Notes: generated by a model from the sequence alone, not told the origin. 64,000 bases of DNA from Blastocatellia bacterium (GCA_039648975.1 JBBWZK010000135.1:753-64752); one strand, 5' to 3'; positions 35,316 to 42,947 are shown, numbered from the stretch's first letter. Translations and numbers: made by a program.

Positions 35316-35632
35316 GTAAATACTCGCTCTGGTTTTTATGAGTGAGTTGGTTAAGGATAAGTGGCTTTGGAATCTGCTTTGAAAGTTTCCAGACCCGCAG
35401 TTCACCAAACTGTCGCTTAACCGCCGATGATAGTTTTGCTGTCCGTTTGGTGCGTATAACAGTTGGGGGAGCAAGCGAAAACAAAATTCTTGATCCCAAG
35501 GCAGGGGTAATTTTGAAAAGTAATCCTTAGTTCAAAAGTTGCTCTGTAGCGTGGGGCAGTCGGTTGCCGTCGAAGCACCGGCTCTCCGTTTACATCAGCT
35601 CGGCAGAACAATGTCGTTTGAGGAGTGGGAAT

Positions 35633-37210
35633 ATGCAAAGCCCTCAAGGGGAGGCTGAAAACCTCATCGAAGGAAAGAATTCTGTTCCAGTCGAAGCCGG
35701 CGCGGCAAACCCTGCACCCGGAAACGGCGTCGCCGGGACACCGCCGGCCATCAAGTTTGGCCGCATGTTTGCCGACCTCACGCGTTTCAGACCTGACAAT
35801 AAAAAACTGATAGAACTGGGTAAAGCGATGCTACATGGGCCAGACCTTGGCGAACATCCTGATCTGCTCGCCGGTTATACGTACCTGGGCCAGTTCATCA
35901 CGCATGACATGACGTTCGACCATAAGCGGGAGATGCTCCCTGAGCCGGTTGATGAGGTGACGAAAATCCAGCAAGATCGAACGCTTGCTCTTTCCCTGGA
36001 AACCCTCTACGGGATCGGTAAACCTTCGGACAATGCCTCATTGTATGATGATCACGCGGCGCTCCCCGAGCGAACATATTTTAAGGTCGGCGTTACAGAC
36101 CCAGAGACCGAGGGCGGGGCTAGTTGCTCATACCGGAATGACCTGCCGAGAGTCAAAAACCAGAACAAGGCGATGATCGGTGACGAGCGCAATGATGCGA
36201 ACTTGGCGCTCGCGCAACTGACCGTGGCATTTCTCAGATTTCATAATCGGGTTGTAGATCACCTCAAATCGAATAACCACCTCAATGAGGATACGTTATT
36301 TGAGAAGGCGCGCAAGATGGTGGTCCAGCATTTTCAATGGATTGTTCTGAAAGATTTCCTGCCAAAAATCATCGAGACAGAGGTGTTGGAATCGGTATTG
36401 GAACCCGTACTAAAGGATGCTCGTGAAAATCGGCCCAGAAACCTCGATGGCAAATGGCCTTTTATACCGGTCGAGTTTTCAGTCGCGGCCTTCCGCCTGG
36501 GTCATAGCATGGTGCGCAGCGCATACGAATGGAATCGCAATTTTCAGACTCCGAACCCTAAGTCTCGTAACGGCGCCGTGCCGCCCTCTGACCTCTTTCT
36601 ACTTACAGGCCGTGACGGAACGATGGGCGAAGGTGGCGGGGCCTTACCGAGCCGGTGGATTATTGATTGGACTCGCTTTTTCGATTTCAACGGCTTTAAC
36701 GGCATCGCCAATAATCCGAAATTCAACCTGGCGAGAAAGATTGATACGAGCCTTTCTCCTGGTCTAAGAAGCTTCAAGGATTTCATTAGCACGGTTATCG
36801 CGGACCCTGACCTCCGGTCGCTGCCCGTGCTGGACTTGATCCGTGGGAGCCGGCTGGGGCTGCCGACCGGGCAGGACGTTGCAGGCGCGCTAAAAGTAGA
36901 TCCACTTGCGGCGACCAAGATTGCCAATGGCCCTCACCAGGAGATCTTGAAAACCCATCATTTCGATGAGCAAACACCGCTGTGGTACTACATCTTGAAA
37001 GAGGCGGAGGTGCTTCACGAAGGGAAATGTTTGGGGCCGGTTGGCAGTCGCATCGTCGCGGAAACGGTCATCGAACTCATGTGGGTGAGCCAGCATTCCA
37101 TTCTCAAAGAGCCCAATTGGAGACCCGAGTTGTGGCAAAAAAAAGAAGGGGAATTTGGCATGGCTGACCTGCTAGTTTTTGCGAATGTCGTCAATCCTCT
37201 GGGCTGTTAA
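35633..37210 (+). CDS. animal-haem-peroxidase-family protein (cytoplasmic; no signal peptide seen)
   Basis: Track ORF 35564..37210, trimmed to ATG 35633 (AGGAG upstream). Distal-His block YLGQFITHDMTFD, then ERNDANLALAQLTVAFLRFHNRVV, proximal-His block FSVAAFRLGHSMV. Confidence 0.8.
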   Translation: MQSPQGEAENLIEGKNSVPVEAGAANPAPGNGVAGTPPAIKFGRMFADLTRFRPDNKKLIELGKAMLHGPDLGEHPDLLAGYTYLGQFITHDMTFDHKREMLPEPVDEVTKIQQDRTLALSLETLYGIGKPSDNASLYDDHAALPERTYFKVGVTDPETEGGASCSYRNDLPRVKNQNKAMIGDERNDANLALAQLTVAFLRFHNRVVDHLKSNNHLNEDTLFEKARKMVVQHFQWIVLKDFLPKIIETEVLESVLEPVLKDARENRPRNLDGKWPFIPVEFSVAAFRLGHSMVRSAYEWNRNFQTPNPKSRNGAVPPSDLFLLTGRDGTMGEGGGALPSRWIIDWTRFFDFNGFNGIANNPKFNLARKIDTSLSPGLRSFKDFISTVIADPDLRSLPVLDLIRGSRLGLPTGQDVAGALKVDPLAATKIANGPHQEILKTHHFDEQTPLWYYILKEAEVLHEGKCLGPVGSRIVAETVIELMWVSQHSILKEPNWRPELWQKKEGEFGMADLLVFANVVNPLGC

Positions 37211-37270: not shown

Positions 37271-37675
37271 ATGGCTAAAAAGATCATTGCTAAGTTGAGA
37301 GCAATAAATGCTCAGGTAGAATTGGAATTGGCCGAGGCGAAATTGGCCAATCTTGAAGATCCGACGATATCGACAGAGTCAGATCTTGCCAAAATCCTGT
37401 CCGACCTCGCTTTGCAGGCGATCCAGGGGGGCCGCGATTCTGCTGCCTGGAAAGCCTATATGCGTAAAATCGTCGGCACGGACAACCCTGACTCTCTGCA
37501 ATTCAAGCGGCTGACCTTTCAGGATGACCTGCGAGGTCAAGACTACGTAGTAAAAAGTAATGTCTACATCGTTGCTAACGCGGTTTGTGGCAGCAACACG
37601 CGGACCAATACCCTGGCAAACGTAGAGACCGAAGGTACAGACATTATCGACAAAGATCTGGCTGCGGAGGCCTGA
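37271..37675 (+). CDS. 134-aa hypothetical protein with helical N-terminal half ending in a double-glycine-leader-like motif
   Basis: Track ORF 37214..37675. ATG 37271 has AAGGAG 7-8 nt upstream; ATG 37214 (3 nt after the peroxidase stop) is the alternative. ...DLAKILSDLALQAIQGG at residues 38-54. Stop TGA 37673-37675 lies 1 nt before the next ATG. Confidence 0.6.
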   Translation: MAKKIIAKLRAINAQVELELAEAKLANLEDPTISTESDLAKILSDLALQAIQGGRDSAAWKAYMRKIVGTDNPDSLQFKRLTFQDDLRGQDYVVKSNVYIVANAVCGSNTRTNTLANVETEGTDIIDKDLAAEA

Positions 37676-37676
37676 G

Positions 37677-39128
37677 ATGAACCGGGAAGCAGGTGAAATT
37701 GAACGACCATCTGATGCTGCCCGCCGCGATGCGAATGCCATTGCGCAATCGCTATCGCGGTTGTGGCAGCGTCTTTGTAAAACTTATTTGCCTGTAGCGC
37801 CGGAAGATTCAATCTGGAGCTTCAGCCGCGCCATAAAGGCGAGCGACCCGGAGCAGGGCTGGAAGCTTCATGTTTCGGCAAACCTGCTGACGGCCTGCGA
37901 AGTCCTCGAACGGGTTGCCCCATTTCTACAGGCCCGCGAGGTTCTCTTTAAGGCCCCTTCGACATTGCAATGGCTCAGTCAACTCAACTGCGGCCTTGAT
38001 CGGGAGTATAGCCAGGTCGGGAAGTTCATTACCGTCTATCCTGGCAGTGACGAAGAGGCGGTTTTTCTGGCGCGGCGGTTGCACAAAATGACTCTTGGCC
38101 GATCCGCTCCCGCCGTGCCGTTTGATCTGAAGTTCCGGCCCGATAGCTCTGTTTATTATCGCTATGGGGGCTTCAAGGCATTGGAAATCATTAACCCTGA
38201 CGGCACCCGCACGCCGGCCATCCGAAATCAGAATGGCGAGCTGATCTCGGACTTATGCAAAGACGGAGCTGCGAGGCCCGTCTGGATATCTGATCCTTTT
38301 ATTAATCAACAGACGCGACGCAAACCAAAGATGATTGAGAATCCGTTCAGCACCAATCTTCTGGTGCTTCGCGCCTTGAGCCAGAGGGGAAAAGGAGGCG
38401 TCTACCAGGGCATTGATCTGAGCGATTCGAAGCCGCGCCTTTGCATCATAAAAGAAGGGCGTCATGGTGGCGAGATAGGCTGGGATGGCCGCGACGGCAA
38501 CTGGAGAGTACGAAATGAAGAATGGGTACTGCGGAGCTTGCGAGTTGCGGGCCTCAACGTTCCGCGTACTTACTCTTCCTTTGAACTCGAACGCAATTAC
38601 TATCTGGTGACAGAATTCATTGAGGGCGACACGCTCCAGAGGCGGCTGAACAAGAGAAAGCGGCGGTTGAGCATCACTCAAGCGCTGCGCTATGGCCATG
38701 AGATTGCGCGCCTTATATCCAAGATCCACGCCGCCGGTTGGGCATGGCGCGATTGTAAGCCGGCCAATCTGCTGGTGACGACGAAAGGCGAATTAAGGCC
38801 GGTCGATTTTGAAGGGGCTTGTCCCTTGGATAAGCCGGATCCTTTGCCCTGGAATACGCCGGAATTCTCTCCTCCGGAATGGCAAGATGCGTGTGCGCCG
38901 CAATCGAGAATAGCTGAAGATATTTATGCGGTCGGGGCGGTCATGCATTATTTATTAACCGGCAGATGGCTTGATGCTTCAAGCCGTGTACGACTATCTG
39001 AATTGCGCCCAAACGTACCTGCTTTCGTGTGCGCACTGGTCTCCGACATGGTGGCTAGCGACCCTCAGCAAAGACCCAGCGCCAGGTGCTTGACAGACAA
39101 ATTCAAAGCAGCTTTATCGTTGGCCTAG
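37677..39128 (+). CDS. LanKC/LanL-like phosphoSer/Thr-lyase domain + Ser/Thr kinase domain, no cyclase domain
   Basis: 483 aa, GGAGG 8 nt upstream. N-terminal blocks QGWKLHVSA, FKAPSTL, QVGKFITVYP, VYYRYGGF, ISDPF resemble my memory of the RamC/LabKC N-termini. Kinase motifs GKGGVYQG, CIIKEG, WRDCKPANLLV, VDFEGA, FSPPEW. The protein ends about 60 aa after the kinase core. Confidence 0.65.
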   Translation: MNREAGEIERPSDAARRDANAIAQSLSRLWQRLCKTYLPVAPEDSIWSFSRAIKASDPEQGWKLHVSANLLTACEVLERVAPFLQAREVLFKAPSTLQWLSQLNCGLDREYSQVGKFITVYPGSDEEAVFLARRLHKMTLGRSAPAVPFDLKFRPDSSVYYRYGGFKALEIINPDGTRTPAIRNQNGELISDLCKDGAARPVWISDPFINQQTRRKPKMIENPFSTNLLVLRALSQRGKGGVYQGIDLSDSKPRLCIIKEGRHGGEIGWDGRDGNWRVRNEEWVLRSLRVAGLNVPRTYSSFELERNYYLVTEFIEGDTLQRRLNKRKRRLSITQALRYGHEIARLISKIHAAGWAWRDCKPANLLVTTKGELRPVDFEGACPLDKPDPLPWNTPEFSPPEWQDACAPQSRIAEDIYAVGAVMHYLLTGRWLDASSRVRLSELRPNVPAFVCALVSDMVASDPQQRPSARCLTDKFKAALSLA

Positions 39129-39202: not shown

Positions 39203-41674
39203 TCATGACGAAAGTTTAGCGCATTTAACCAGCTCGATAATTCCAGGGTCTGTGCGAATGGAGTCTAGAAACGGCTCCATCATCAAGAAGGGGAAGGTTG
39301 CAAATTTATCGCTGCAAGCTTGCTGTAATAATGCATACGCTCGCTCTTTTTCGCCAAGCCCGATGTAAATAAGCGCCTTTTCCTGAGGCGGTATATCAGG
39401 TTCCTTTGATAGTTTATCAAGGATTTCCAGCGCCTCGCTTTTTCTTCCGGCCCTTCCATAAGCAAAGCCCAGCGGGGCAGCGCCGTAGAAGTTATCTGCG
39501 GCGTAGAGCTTTTGAAACACCTTTATAGAGTCTTGCAACATCCCTTTTTGCAGGTAGGCCAACCCCAGTACGTTCAGCGTCGCAAGGTGATCGGGATTTC
39601 TTTCAAGATTCATCCGGCAGTATTCGATAGCTTTGTCATAGTGTCGCGAGTAGTAGTAGGCAAGCCCCACATTCATGATTGAGGGCGGGGCAAACGGCTC
39701 AAGGTCCCAGGCGATTTCGCTTTCCCTTATCGCTTCATCCTCCCGCCCTTTCAGCCCCAGGAGGCGGGAATACCAGAAATGTGCCGGGGAGTATTCAGGG
39801 TTTAGCTCAATCGCCCGCTTAAACTCTTTTTCAGCCGCTTGCCAATCCCATTCGTACTTTAATAGGTAAACCGCCTTAGAGGTATGCGCTTCTGCAAGCG
39901 TGTCATCAATCTCTATAGCCTTATTCGCAGCCCATTTCGCATTATTCATGGCCTCTCTGGTGGATATTGGACGACCAAAAGTAACCGCGCTCAACAAGAC
40001 GTAGGAATCCGCCAGCCCGGCGTAGGCCTTGGCGTAGTACGGATCCAGCTTGACCGCCCGGTCAAAGAAATTGATGGCTTTCTTAATATTCTCTTTGTTT
40101 CTATCGTTCCAATAATACCGTCCGTAGAAATACATTCTGCAAGCTTCCTCATTTTCGGTGGGGCGGGCAAATAAAAGCCGCTTTTCGTCTTCGCTGAGCG
40201 AGAGATGTAATTTAGAGGCCAGTTTATAAGCAAGGTCAGATTGAAGACTTAGCAATTCGCCGGGCGCGATGATGTACTTATCCTCCCAAATCGGCAACCC
40301 GTCCGCCGAATCGACCAGCTTGACTTCAAGCGCAAGGGCTTCATTCTCTGTTGTCAGCGTTCCAAAAAGCACCGCCTGGACGTTGAAATCACTCAGTATC
40401 CGCCGCTGCGCCTCCTGATCATCCTCGTAAGCCGGGATCACGGTCGGCGCTTTAACCTTCAGCTTTGACAGACTGGAAAGCCGGTTGGTGATCCCCTCGG
40501 TCAGCCCTTTGCTCAGAATTTCAGCGTTCGCATCCTTGCTTTTGTTGACTATCGGAAGCACCGCGAGCGTCTGAATCCTTGATGGTTTTAAATAAACCAT
40601 CAAGATGGCGAGGACGAGCAGCAAAAGCAGAACGGCGGCAACATAGTTGCGGATCTGATAGCGGGCTGGCCGCCTCGGGCTGAGTCGGGCCACTTCTGGG
40701 GGATTGTCGAGGTCCAGGAGAAGCTCACTCGCGGATTGGTATCGTAGCTCTCTATCTCTCTGCAAGCACTTCTGAACGATGGAGGTCAGCCCCGGCTGAA
40801 TATGGGTTGAACAACTGATCATTTCGTAAAGGACAATCCCGAAGCTGAAGATGTCACTACGATAGTCCAGCCTCTCGGACCTCAGTTGCTCCGGGGACAT
40901 ATAAGCTATGGTGCCGACCACCAATCCCAATTTGGCGCTTTCACTTTCAGCCATGTTGAGCGCATCCGGTTTTTGCTGAACGTGTTTTGCCAGCCCGAAA
41001 TCGAGAACCTTCACCTGCCCGGTGGCCGTCACCATGATGTTTTGCGGCTTTATGTCACGGTGGATGATGCCATGAGAGTGGGCTTCGATGAGGGCGCTGA
41101 CGATCTGAATAGCTAAGTGAGAAATCTTTTCAGATGGGAACGTCCCATTGCGTATCAGCGAGGCCAGCGTTTCGCCTTCGATATACTGCATCACGATGAA
41201 GTTATATCCGTCGTGTTCTTCAAAATCATGCACGACGCAGATGTTCGGGTGATCCAGTCGCCCTATGGCCTGGGCCTCTTTCTTCAGTTGTCTTTTGGCC
41301 CATGCATCATCGGTAAATGGGTGAGAGAGAAATTTTAGAGCAACTTTGCGGTCGAGCCGGTCATCTTGCGCAAGATAAACTTCCCCCATGCCGCCCCGGC
41401 CCAACAACACCTGAATCTGATATGAGCCGATCTGTTTTCCGACCAGCGACTCTTTTTCCGGCTCCTCGGCCAGCACCTTCATTCCGAGGCTGAAGGCAGG
41501 CCGTTCCATGAACTCTCGTTTATTCTCGAAGGCGGCGATTAAGGACTCAACCTCCCTGCGCAGCGATGCATCATCCACGCAAACCTTGGCCAGATACACG
41601 GCTCTCTCTTCGGCGCTAAGGCCCATCGCTTCATGGAACAGGACTTCGGTGCGCTGCCAGTTCTTAGGCTTCAT
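39203..41674 (-). CDS. membrane-spanning Ser/Thr protein kinase with TolB-N-like and TPR sensor region
   Basis: 823 aa. GRGGMGEVYLA, VALKF, HRDIKPQNIMV, DFGLA, YMSPEQ. TM segment YVAAVLLLLLVLAILMVYL. LAVLPIVNKSKDANAEILSKGLTEGI module followed by multiple TPR-like repeats. Start overlaps the sigma-factor stop by 11 nt. Confidence 0.85.
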   Translation of the reverse strand: MKPKNWQRTEVLFHEAMGLSAEERAVYLAKVCVDDASLRREVESLIAAFENKREFMERPAFSLGMKVLAEEPEKESLVGKQIGSYQIQVLLGRGGMGEVYLAQDDRLDRKVALKFLSHPFTDDAWAKRQLKKEAQAIGRLDHPNICVVHDFEEHDGYNFIVMQYIEGETLASLIRNGTFPSEKISHLAIQIVSALIEAHSHGIIHRDIKPQNIMVTATGQVKVLDFGLAKHVQQKPDALNMAESESAKLGLVVGTIAYMSPEQLRSERLDYRSDIFSFGIVLYEMISCSTHIQPGLTSIVQKCLQRDRELRYQSASELLLDLDNPPEVARLSPRRPARYQIRNYVAAVLLLLLVLAILMVYLKPSRIQTLAVLPIVNKSKDANAEILSKGLTEGITNRLSSLSKLKVKAPTVIPAYEDDQEAQRRILSDFNVQAVLFGTLTTENEALALEVKLVDSADGLPIWEDKYIIAPGELLSLQSDLAYKLASKLHLSLSEDEKRLLFARPTENEEACRMYFYGRYYWNDRNKENIKKAINFFDRAVKLDPYYAKAYAGLADSYVLLSAVTFGRPISTREAMNNAKWAANKAIEIDDTLAEAHTSKAVYLLKYEWDWQAAEKEFKRAIELNPEYSPAHFWYSRLLGLKGREDEAIRESEIAWDLEPFAPPSIMNVGLAYYYSRHYDKAIEYCRMNLERNPDHLATLNVLGLAYLQKGMLQDSIKVFQKLYAADNFYGAAPLGFAYGRAGRKSEALEILDKLSKEPDIPPQEKALIYIGLGEKERAYALLQQACSDKFATFPFLMMEPFLDSIRTDPGIIELVKCAKLSS

Positions 41675-42227
41675 TGGTCAACTCGCGCGCAAGCCACGCT
41701 TTGGCTAAGTTCCAATCGCGCATAACTGTGACGGGAGAGACCTTCAGCACCTCTGCGGTCTCCTCGACGCTGAGGCCGCCAAAAAAACGCAACTCGACGA
41801 CCTGACTCTTTCGCTCGTCTATCGAGGCCAGTCGGTTCAACGCTTCATCAAGAGCGATCAACTCGGCGGATCGCTCGGTTGATATAATGGCTTCCGAGAG
41901 CGATACGTGGATTGCGCCGCCACCGCGCTTGATGCGGTTCTGGTCTCGCGCATAATTGAGTAGAATGCGGCGCATGATCCGCGCCGAAATGGCGATAAAG
42001 TGCGCCCGATTTTGCCAGCGCACCCGGGTCTGGTCCATCAGCCGGACAAACGCCTCGTTGACCAGGGCCGTAGTCTGTAACATGTGGCCGGGATACTCAT
42101 GATGCATATATTGGTGTGCCAGACGATGAAGCTCTTTTTCGACTAAAGGGATCAGCCGCTCCAAGGCATTCTGATCTCCATTGCACCATGCGATGAGTAG
42201 ACCTGTAACTTCTGTGGAAGAGTGCAT
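41664..42227 (-). CDS. ECF-type RNA polymerase sigma factor (kinase-associated subgroup)
   Basis: Track ORF 41664..42263 starts at TTG; ATG 42227 (MHSSTEVTGLLIAWCNGDQNALERLIPLV) is the alternative I list. Region 2 ALVNEAFVRL; region 4 LSVEETAEVLKVSPVTVMRDWNLAKAWL. Start is uncertain. Confidence 0.8.
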   Translation of the reverse strand: MHSSTEVTGLLIAWCNGDQNALERLIPLVEKELHRLAHQYMHHEYPGHMLQTTALVNEAFVRLMDQTRVRWQNRAHFIAISARIMRRILLNYARDQNRIKRGGGAIHVSLSEAIISTERSAELIALDEALNRLASIDERKSQVVELRFFGGLSVEETAEVLKVSPVTVMRDWNLAKAWLARELTNEA

Positions 42228-42509
42228 AGCGTTTGAATCTGCGGCGTAACCTTCTCCTATCAAGAAAGCCTCACTACAACAAGACTGTTCTTAAATCAGA
42301 AGATAGTTTTTGACCCGATCTGGTGCGTTATGTCATGAAGGCGAAAATTGAGTCGCGTGAGTCTCAACCGGTCGTCTTCTGTTTTTAAGCTTAGGGCACC
42401 AGTGCAGTAGGTTATATATCGATTCTTACTGATATTGCAATCTCTTTTTTGGGATACCAGGCCATTTATGAAAGCTAAATTTACCGCTGATTCGGGCAGG
42501 AAAACTGTA

Positions 42510-42947
42510 ATGGCAAACACGATTAGAAGCTGGATGATGGTGGCTCTGGCCACAGTCGTTGCGCTCCTTTATGGCGGCGCGGTGCTGGGCATCGTCAAGC
42601 CGCAGGCCGACGAGAGAATGATTGAACGCATTGAGCCGATTATTTTTGTGATCATCGGATATTACTTTGGCAGGCTGCCTGCCCAGCAGAATGAAAACAC
42701 ATTGCGAGAAGAGATCAACCGTCAAGCTCAAAAGGCCGATGCGGCGCAGCATACTAAGGAGCAGGCGCAGCAGGCCAGAGAGTCGTTTGAAGAGAAGATG
42801 AAAAGCGTCAGGACGGTGTTGATGGCTTCGGTGTTGGGGCTTGAGAAAAAGCGGCAGACCGATAATCACGATAAGCCGGGCGGGCCGGTCTATGACGATT
42901 CTGTGCGCCAGTCAATGGCTGCTGCCATAAACATTCTGAACTCGTAA
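42510..42947 (+). CDS. hypothetical membrane-anchored coiled-coil protein
   Basis: Track ORF 42435..42947; starts at 42468 or 42510 are both possible. Two hydrophobic segments (WMMVALATVVALLYGGAVLGIV, IIFVIIGYYFG), then a charged helical stretch QQNENTLREEINRQAQKADAAQHTKEQAQQARESFEEKMK. Confidence 0.5.
   Translation: MANTIRSWMMVALATVVALLYGGAVLGIVKPQADERMIERIEPIIFVIIGYYFGRLPAQQNENTLREEINRQAQKADAAQHTKEQAQQARESFEEKMKSVRTVLMASVLGLEKKRQTDNHDKPGGPVYDDSVRQSMAAAINILNS

Follow-up and report, generated by a model that had tools for sequence, protein, structure and literature searches.

What is the product of a small gene that ends just ahead of a lanthipeptide-type lyase-kinase gene, and does the glycine pair within it mark the end of a cleavable leader? 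This question is raised by the gene SMALL of a Blastocatellia bacterium, located in a stretch of 64,000 nucleotides (GCA_039648975.1 JBBWZK010000135.1:753-64752), here called the window, to which all coordinates refer unless another locus is named. The original prediction regarded SMALL as a candidate modified substrate, with a double-glycine leader followed by an 80-residue core. Judging from sequence comparison and structure prediction, we consider it probable that SMALL is a protein-sized descendant of lanthipeptide precursors and serves as dedicated substrate for LK, the cyclase-less lyase-kinase encoded immediately downstream. Hereby, the substrate part of the earlier claim is retained, since constant pairing with LK, an invariant Cys-x-x-x-Thr/Ser pattern and leader homology of residues 1-83 speak for it, while the double-glycine leader with its 80-residue core is given up. 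The two genes at the centre of this question are:

37271..37675, plus strand: SMALL, predicted to be a 134-residue folded relative of lanthipeptide precursors (start codon ATG at 37271, stop codon TGA ending at 37675)
37677..39128, plus strand: LK, which combines RamC_N phospho-Ser/Thr lyase (PF25816) and protein kinase (PF00069) domains but has no LanC-like cyclase domain

The ATG of SMALL is preceded by GGAG at a distance of 8 nucleotides, and its stop codon lies 1 nucleotide before the ATG of LK. Residues 41-54 read KILSDLALQAIQGG, with G53 encoded at 37427-37429 and G54 at 37430-37432, and the sole cysteine, C106 (37586-37588), lies within VCGSNTRTNTLANVETEGTD. Upon re-reading of the window, the earlier statements on the open reading frame, on residues 41-54 and on the single cysteine all proved correct; likewise, Pfam matches bear out the neighbours named at that time, a haem peroxidase upstream and a lyase-kinase downstream. 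SMALL itself matches no family in Pfam, NCBIfam or PADLOC. An exhaustive phmmer search yielded a family of 88 representatives at E<1e-3, nearly all of which are 105-165 residues long. From these, 61 were aligned (alignment A2), which is the basis of all counts out of 61 given below. Invariant in this alignment are G54, W60, L81, Y99 and C106.

Two features vary within the family. Only the window protein and the three homologues closest to it have an 11-residue helical insertion, ELAEAKLANLE (residues 19-29, window 37325-37357), which is missing in the other 57 of the 61 members. Moreover, a subset of the family carries a second cysteine near the C-terminus (position 132 and nearby tails) in a C-(Q/D/E/P)-P context, as in LACQPEP, GQCDPEP and VVCPP; the window protein does not have it. 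We also considered SMALL as a repeat domain because of matches to the long proteins P0129, P0139 and P0176. As these are insect-allergen, Reelin/BNR and TPR proteins, the matches are spurious helical ones and this candidate was rejected.

The partner LK comprises 483 residues, with E values of 3.3e-39 for PF25816 and 4.4e-21 for PF00069. Class III and class IV synthetase models match LK over their first halves only; hereby, the LanL model NF038150 is covered at positions 5-447 of 851 and yields 296 bits against a cut-off of 650. Similarly, LK aligns with the solved class III/IV synthetases over lyase and kinase only (8car, 1e-41; 8sao, 2e-28). The lyase residues K63 and H65 (GWK63-x-H65), K92, Y161 and R162 are conserved in 31 orthologues, K63, H65, K92 and R162 being invariant and GWK63-x-H65 and K92 aligning with 8car and 8sao; the kinase residues K259, E281, D359, K361 and N364 (D359-x-K-P-x-N364) as well as D377-F-E are kept in the same set, K259, D359-x-K-P-x-N364 and D377-F-E invariantly so. 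No LanC domain (PF05147) is found in the genome, nor in 8 of 13 genomes bearing the cassette. In a maximum-likelihood tree all cyclase-less LKs, including one that stands beside a LanC, form one clade (96/98 support) apart from the full-length LanKC/LanL enzymes of the same class, with the branching inside the clade unresolved. More than 1,300 database clusters match LK at E<=1e-10, full-length synthetases being included in this number; the cyclase-less form occurs in about 10% of the genomes of this acidobacterial class.

Of 401 genomes scanned across the phylum with a six-frame hidden Markov model (HMM), only 2 yielded the small protein, and locus sampling was therefore anchored on LK and not on the small-protein HMM. 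A search of 301 genomes of the same class for LK provided 30 loci with a cyclase-less LK, around each of which up to 19 kb were fetched. A member of the small-protein family is located directly upstream of LK in 30 of these 30 loci, and likewise in a distant metagenome member; the loci share no further gene that would qualify as a candidate substrate.

The origin of SMALL is indicated by two loci with a different architecture:

L063:7359-12071 and L153:9001-13215: split lanthipeptide-type clusters, each with four paralogous precursors, a cyclase-less LK and a stand-alone LanC

L063, one of the 30 LK loci, belongs to a genome of the same genus (G419). Hereby, four small genes flank LK, whose products match the small-protein HMM at 1e-12 to 1e-17. 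They share with SMALL the N-terminal ~83 residues (e.g. KVHEVVARILTDPLFAAEVKRAAVAAVSGGAGSQEWRDYFERFASTPGELANMG) and then run into Cys/Ser/Thr-rich cores (CTCNSNTYMTLSSLVTPVPTCCATTTTTTTSGNYF). The region downstream encodes a free-standing LanC-like cyclase (PF05147, 1.8e-59) and an NmrA-like reductase, and it also contains ABC and HlyD genes. L153, on a metagenome contig of 151 kb, shows the same order of two precursors, LK, two precursors and LanC. The cores of both loci follow the pattern CTCNS...TCCATTTTTTTSG / CTCNS...TCCATTTTTTTSGNYF, and the database holds 34 precursors of this kind. By their gene content and sequences, L063 and L153 look like split class III/IV-type lanthipeptide clusters; we found no published description of such a split four-precursor/LK/LanC architecture. 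Directly upstream of the L153 cluster (L153:1297-8834) there is, in addition, a RiPP-like gene set (RiPP, a peptide made on ribosomes and modified after translation) consisting of a gasdermin-protease-like gene, a P450, an MbnB/TglH-family gene and a B12-binding radical SAM gene.

Profile-profile comparison with hhalign of the SMALL family (A2) against these precursors (alignment A5) gives a probability of 99% and an E value of 3e-18 over 92 columns. In the joint alignment (A4), A50, G54, S57, Y63, P73 and C106 are invariant, and C106-x-x-x-T of SMALL aligns with the CC-A-T7 end of the precursor cores. The split clusters thus have in common with the window an LK of the same clade and the same leader family, including the mid-leader GG and an S..W..Y..F...P.EL block. 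In contrast to the window, they possess LanC and four paralogous precursors, in L063 also the reductase and the ABC/HlyD export genes, and they lack a peroxidase, the pair of sigma factor and Ser/Thr kinase described below and the promoter motif. The predicted folds differ as well: AlphaFold2 models of the precursors combine a helical leader (predicted local distance difference test, pLDDT, 80-93) with a disordered core (<50; the core of P0226 lies below 50), while SMALL is folded throughout. Taken together, leader homology, joint alignment, fold contrast and LK phylogeny identify SMALL, at the level of sequence and predicted structure, as a derived relative of lanthipeptide precursors, in which residues 1-83 form a putative leader-like recognition domain and the former core appears to have been reduced to a single Cys and a single Thr/Ser within a loop of a folded protein. 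Within the SMALL gene, the two parts are located as follows:

37271..37519, plus strand: leader-like domain, residues 1-83, ending in P73-x-QLxRL81, assigned by homology to the leaders of the L063/L153 precursors
37586..37612, plus strand: loop C106-G-S-N-T110-R-T112-N-T114, the proposed modification site, based on conservation and the AlphaFold2 model

Modelled with the A2 alignment, SMALL is a compact protein of five helices (residues 5-29, 38-53, 58-68, 76-81 and 91-105) with a pLDDT of 91.7 and a predicted template modelling score of 0.85; a fold search of the PDB with this model gave no match at E<1 (nothing below E 4.7). The best-conserved segment of the family, A-Y99-I-V-A-N103-A-x-C106-G-x-x-T110, leads into the proposed modification site. 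All members (61/61) have C106, and all (61/61) carry a hydroxyl residue at position 110 (56 Thr, 5 Ser); T112 and T114 are found in 32/61 and 38/61, respectively. According to the model, the loop 106-114 is flanked by helix 91-105 on one side and, on the other, by a conserved I126-D127-x-x-L130 segment, which pairs back with the N-terminus; the loop is the least confident region (pLDDT 74-80). With one Cys, one invariant Thr/Ser and a C-terminal half that is predicted to be folded (pLDDT 74-97), SMALL has no disordered Cys/Ser/Thr-rich core.

How does the glycine pair fit into this picture? The original prediction implied that SMALL is a RiPP precursor in which residues 1-54 form a leader of the class II bacteriocin type, cleaved after G54 by a C39 peptidase/exporter to release a modified core of 80 residues. 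The element in question is:

37391..37432, plus strand: double-glycine-like motif, residues 41-54 (KILSDLALQAIQGG), predicted to be the end of helix 38-53 plus a turn, based on the AlphaFold2 model, the NCBIfam model TIGR01847 and column counts

Locally, the sequence does agree with LSxxxLxxIxGG. As in the double-glycine leaders of class II bacteriocins and lanthipeptides, which are recognized by TIGR01847 and processed by C39-ABC proteins, the window protein is hydrophobic at positions -12, -7 and -4 and has Gly at -2 and -1; family-wide, G54 is invariant and positions -4, -7 and -12 are simply hydrophobic for the most part. TIGR01847 ('bacteriocin_sig') gives a weak match to residues 41-54 of 13.2 bits, which is below the cut-off of 15.7 (E 0.11), and the window protein is the only one of the 61 family members that it matches. 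The column counts at the motif are mixed. While position -1 is Gly in 61/61, at position -2 (G53) 35 of the 61 members have Gly, 5 Ala and 4 Ser, the remainder including K, D, H, E and N, and S44 at position -11 is Ser in 16/61.

A leader/core boundary at the GG is not seen. Immediately past it, S57 (56/61), W60 (61/61), Y63 (58/61) and M64 (58/61) are near-invariant, and the mean information per column amounts to 1.93 bits up to the GG and 2.13 bits beyond it. The GG sits at the turn after the second helix of the model, at a pLDDT of 96-98, and in the L063/L153-type precursors, where the mid-leader motif is GG or AG, about 25 conserved leader residues still follow before the core begins. Processing enzymes are likewise missing. 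A C39 peptidase (PF03412) is absent from the window, as had been pointed out earlier for the corresponding ABC exporter, and from the whole genome, which is 85% complete; among 12 near-complete genomes with the cassette, 7 lack it as well and the rest encode it >1 Mb away or on other contigs. No exporter is conserved across the 30 loci.

The alignment of homologues that the original prediction had proposed, in which the GG block should be conserved and the sequence after it variable, thus gives a G53 that is Gly in 35/61 and equal conservation after the GG. The uniformly conserved globular fold that it had named as speaking against a leader is what we find, with conservation over the whole length and a pLDDT of 91.7. 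The 80-residue core after G54 finds no support either, given the same continuous conservation, the globular prediction and the ~25 leader residues that related precursors keep past the GG. Based on alignment and model, the GG of SMALL is the cap and turn between the second and third helices of the leader-like domain and not a cleavage site. Since TIGR01847 stays below threshold and matches 1/61 members, and the genome has no C39 peptidase, the motif match is, on the sequence level, about what chance over a conserved amphipathic helix would yield. The double-glycine explanation is therefore already largely refuted, and we assign it hardly any remaining probability. A locally convincing motif has proved to be a structural turn, which is a corrective result for this narrow claim.

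With the leader question settled to this degree, we return to SMALL as the substrate of LK. Linkage, homology, conservation, predicted fold and promoter motif were computed here; every chemical step in what follows we infer. LK would dock on the helical leader-like domain formed by residues 1-83. The C-terminal half of SMALL would be folded onto this domain, leaving the loop C106-x-x-x-T110(-x-T-x-T) exposed, in which LK might phosphorylate T110 and perhaps also T112 and T114. The OspF-type lyase domain of LK would then eliminate the phosphate to yield dehydrobutyrine. In a genome that has no LanC, Cys106 could add to it unaided by a dedicated cyclase and close a small methyllanthionine ring, or it could stay free beside the electrophile. 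The haem peroxidase, where present, may subsequently oxidize the modified SMALL. As neither a protease nor an exporter is conserved alongside the cassette, the product is probably an intracellular modified protein that remains in the cell.

The peroxidase gene that enters this scheme precedes SMALL:

35633..37210, plus strand: PEROX, a cytoplasmic haem peroxidase (Pfam An_peroxidase PF03098, E 1.4e-24; alternative TTG start at 35564)

Beyond An_peroxidase, PEROX matches no family in Pfam, NCBIfam or PADLOC. Its presence upstream of SMALL could be assessed in 26 loci, of which 19 have it. Both genes are in one reading frame, separated by a single TAA plus 60 nucleotides, so that the loss of this stop codon alone would fuse them. 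Such a natural PEROX-SMALL fusion exists, P0154 with 662 residues, on a single metagenome contig (L065:2127-4115), and constitutes weak evidence for a physical coupling of the two proteins. In loci without PEROX, unrelated genes occupy the upstream position (S1/P1 nuclease, TPR, glycosyltransferase, Crp), and a replacement enzyme was therefore rejected. The peroxidase family as such is widespread (Bradyrhizobium, cyanobacteria, actinomycetes, myxobacteria), with SMALL and LK beside it only in Acidobacteriota. In one locus of another lineage, the metagenome-assembled genome of a Thermoanaerobaculia member (L134:4720-11337), a PEROX homologue is followed by a methionine sulfoxide reductase (PMSR), while a sigma-54 activator and a TPR Ser/Thr kinase lie ahead of it. 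This arrangement hints that in other lineages, too, the peroxidase family has ties to the chemistry of protein oxidation and to regulation linked to kinases.

The fusion also bears on the possibility that SMALL is not a substrate at all but a degenerate precursor kept as a non-catalytic partner, be it as a leader-in-trans activator or adaptor that steers LK or the peroxidase to another target, or as a peroxidase subunit. Leader peptides can activate lanthipeptide synthetases in trans, and a globular, uniformly conserved fold whose N- and C-termini pair in the model would suit such a partner. The fusion, however, comes from one contig and needs the loss of one stop codon only. Moreover, the best-conserved block of the protein is Y99...C106...T/S110, with its hydroxyl at position 110 in every member, as expected for a kinase-lyase target, and a gene for any other substrate candidate is not kept in the loci. 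We thus regard a pure partner role as unlikely.

Alternatively, SMALL could be a dedicated reducing or redox partner, or an oxidation target, of the haem peroxidase via Cys106, Tyr99 or Trp60, with LK merely regulating it by phosphorylation of T110, reversible or irreversible. The invariance of Cys, Tyr and Trp, the frequent peroxidase upstream and the methionine sulfoxide reductase next to its homologue in L134 are in line with this, and so is the resemblance of the module, including its membrane protein, to a stress regulon under control of an extracytoplasmic function (ECF) sigma factor. Yet the invariant residues, and the C106...T/S110 pattern with them, are conserved to the same degree whether or not a locus has the peroxidase, and so do not depend on it. 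The invariant catalytic residues of the LK lyase argue for elimination and not for phosphorylation alone, and the homology to lanthipeptide precursors points to dehydration. A redox role in place of dehydration hence appears quite improbable.

Several points weigh against SMALL as a substrate of LK that is further processed by the peroxidase. A compact, confidently folded and uniformly conserved protein is an unusual RiPP substrate, and it may be for structural or redox reasons, and not for LK, that its Cys, Tyr and Trp are invariant. In sequence order, the Cys is N-terminal to the Thr (C-x-x-x-T), the reverse of the usual order of Ser/Thr followed by Cys. PEROX is missing from at least 7 loci, and the role given to it here is a guess. 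Two further points concern the regulon and are best weighed together with the genes beyond LK, which complete the module:

39203..41674, minus strand: STK-TPR, a membrane Ser/Thr kinase with a TPR domain, convergent on LK (Pkinase E 7.6e-48, plus TPR families)
41664..42263, minus strand: ECF sigma factor (PF07638, E 6.6e-51), overlapping the kinase start by 11 nucleotides
42510..42947, plus strand: MEM, a two-transmembrane/coiled-coil protein of ~145-150 residues, the sixth conserved gene of the module
35429..35463, plus strand: promoter-like motif P1, GATAGTTTT-N11-GGTGCGT, upstream of the peroxidase-SMALL-LK operon
42302..42336, plus strand: promoter-like motif P2, before MEM and pointing away from the ECF gene

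A convergent STK-TPR gene is found in 29 of 29 loci of the window type, and the ECF sigma gene is conserved with the kinase wherever the contig extends to that point. In PADLOC, LK and STK match generic kinase models only. MEM has a weak YtxH-like match as its sole family match (E 7e-4, below cut-off). In 21 related loci, however, a homologue is conserved in divergent orientation to the ECF gene, and MEM therefore belongs to the module and not to the downstream envelope gene set. Window-type loci contain no LanC, protease or exporter.

The motif P1/P2, in shorthand TGATAGTTT-N-GGTGCGTTA, has two exact matches in the window (35429-35455 and 42302-42328, both on the plus strand), compared to zero expected, and with up to one mismatch P1 and P2 are its only occurrences in the 6.9-Mb genome. 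In related loci, 41 sites yield the consensus TGATAGTTtt-N7-atTnGGtGCGTTA at the same placement: where PEROX is missing, the motif lies directly upstream of SMALL, and a second copy precedes MEM. The operon and MEM therefore appear, as far as motif and gene order tell, to form a private regulon of the adjacent Ser/Thr-kinase/ECF-sigma pair. Kinase-associated ECF groups are known (PMC7826278). That this ECF sigma factor reads the motif we infer from adjacency only, and for the ECF gene itself a copy on its own strand is missing; these are the two weak points on the regulatory side. An anti-sigma role for SMALL, which we had also considered, found no support.

In its full extent, our proposal is that a lanthipeptide precursor has turned into a folded intracellular protein, the Cys106...Thr110 loop of which would be converted by LK to a protein-borne dehydrobutyrine or thioether and processed further by the peroxidase, all under a private Ser/Thr-kinase/ECF-sigma regulon. 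While the relationship of SMALL to LK is probable, this complete chain of events is put forward tentatively, as a possible course.

We found no description of the SMALL-LK cassette in the literature, and a comparison with known systems illustrates where it stands. With class III/IV lanthipeptides (LanA with LanKC/LanL, as in RamS/RamC and VenA/VenL; PDB 8car, 8sao) it has in common a small gene directly upstream of an enzyme that combines an OspF-type lyase with a kinase, a product with a helical, leader-like N-terminal part and a C-terminal part with Cys and Thr/Ser, and the homology of SMALL to precursors that stand beside LK and LanC. It differs in that LK has no cyclase domain and the genome no LanC, in that SMALL is a folded protein of 134 residues with one Cys and one invariant Thr/Ser instead of a disordered Cys/Ser/Thr-rich core, in the lack of a protease or exporter in the window cassette, and in the haem peroxidase, the ECF sigma/Ser-Thr kinase pair and the membrane protein attached to it in window-type loci. 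The system would thus work like class III/IV lanthipeptide dehydration, yet it comes without the cyclase, the disordered core and the export expected of a member of these pathways. The published 'class VI' LanKCb enzymes are different from the LK system.

The NHLP and Nif11 leaders of proteusins and prochlorosins resemble SMALL in that a long (~80 residues), structured leader domain precedes the modified segment, but their partner enzyme is of a different type, and among the 61 SMALL-family members no match to NHLP or Nif11 families of Pfam and NCBIfam was obtained at E up to 1. A chemical parallel may be drawn to the OspF/SpvC phosphothreonine lyases, which act on folded MAP kinases: the proposed step would again be the irreversible elimination of phospho-Thr to dehydrobutyrine in the loop of a folded protein. 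In LK, however, kinase and lyase are fused, and the target would be a dedicated, co-encoded bacterial protein and not a host kinase.

Genome mining for lanthipeptides has been anchored on the LanC-like domain (PMC7268733), and cyclase-less lyase-kinases are consequently missed by it. The analysis presented here links three things: a split lanthipeptide pathway consisting of four precursors, LK and LanC; a derived module with a folded precursor; and the haem peroxidase together with the sigma/kinase regulon that this module has added. If the proposal is true, SMALL and LK would be a bacterial case of programmed conversion of Thr to dehydrobutyrine on the organism's own folded protein, and the cassette would offer a tractable system in which to study the action of a haem peroxidase on dehydrated or thiol-bearing proteins. 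For the soil Acidobacteriota, it would mean a protein modification or cofactor of a new kind, installed by enzymes and serving in the stress response, and not a secreted natural product.

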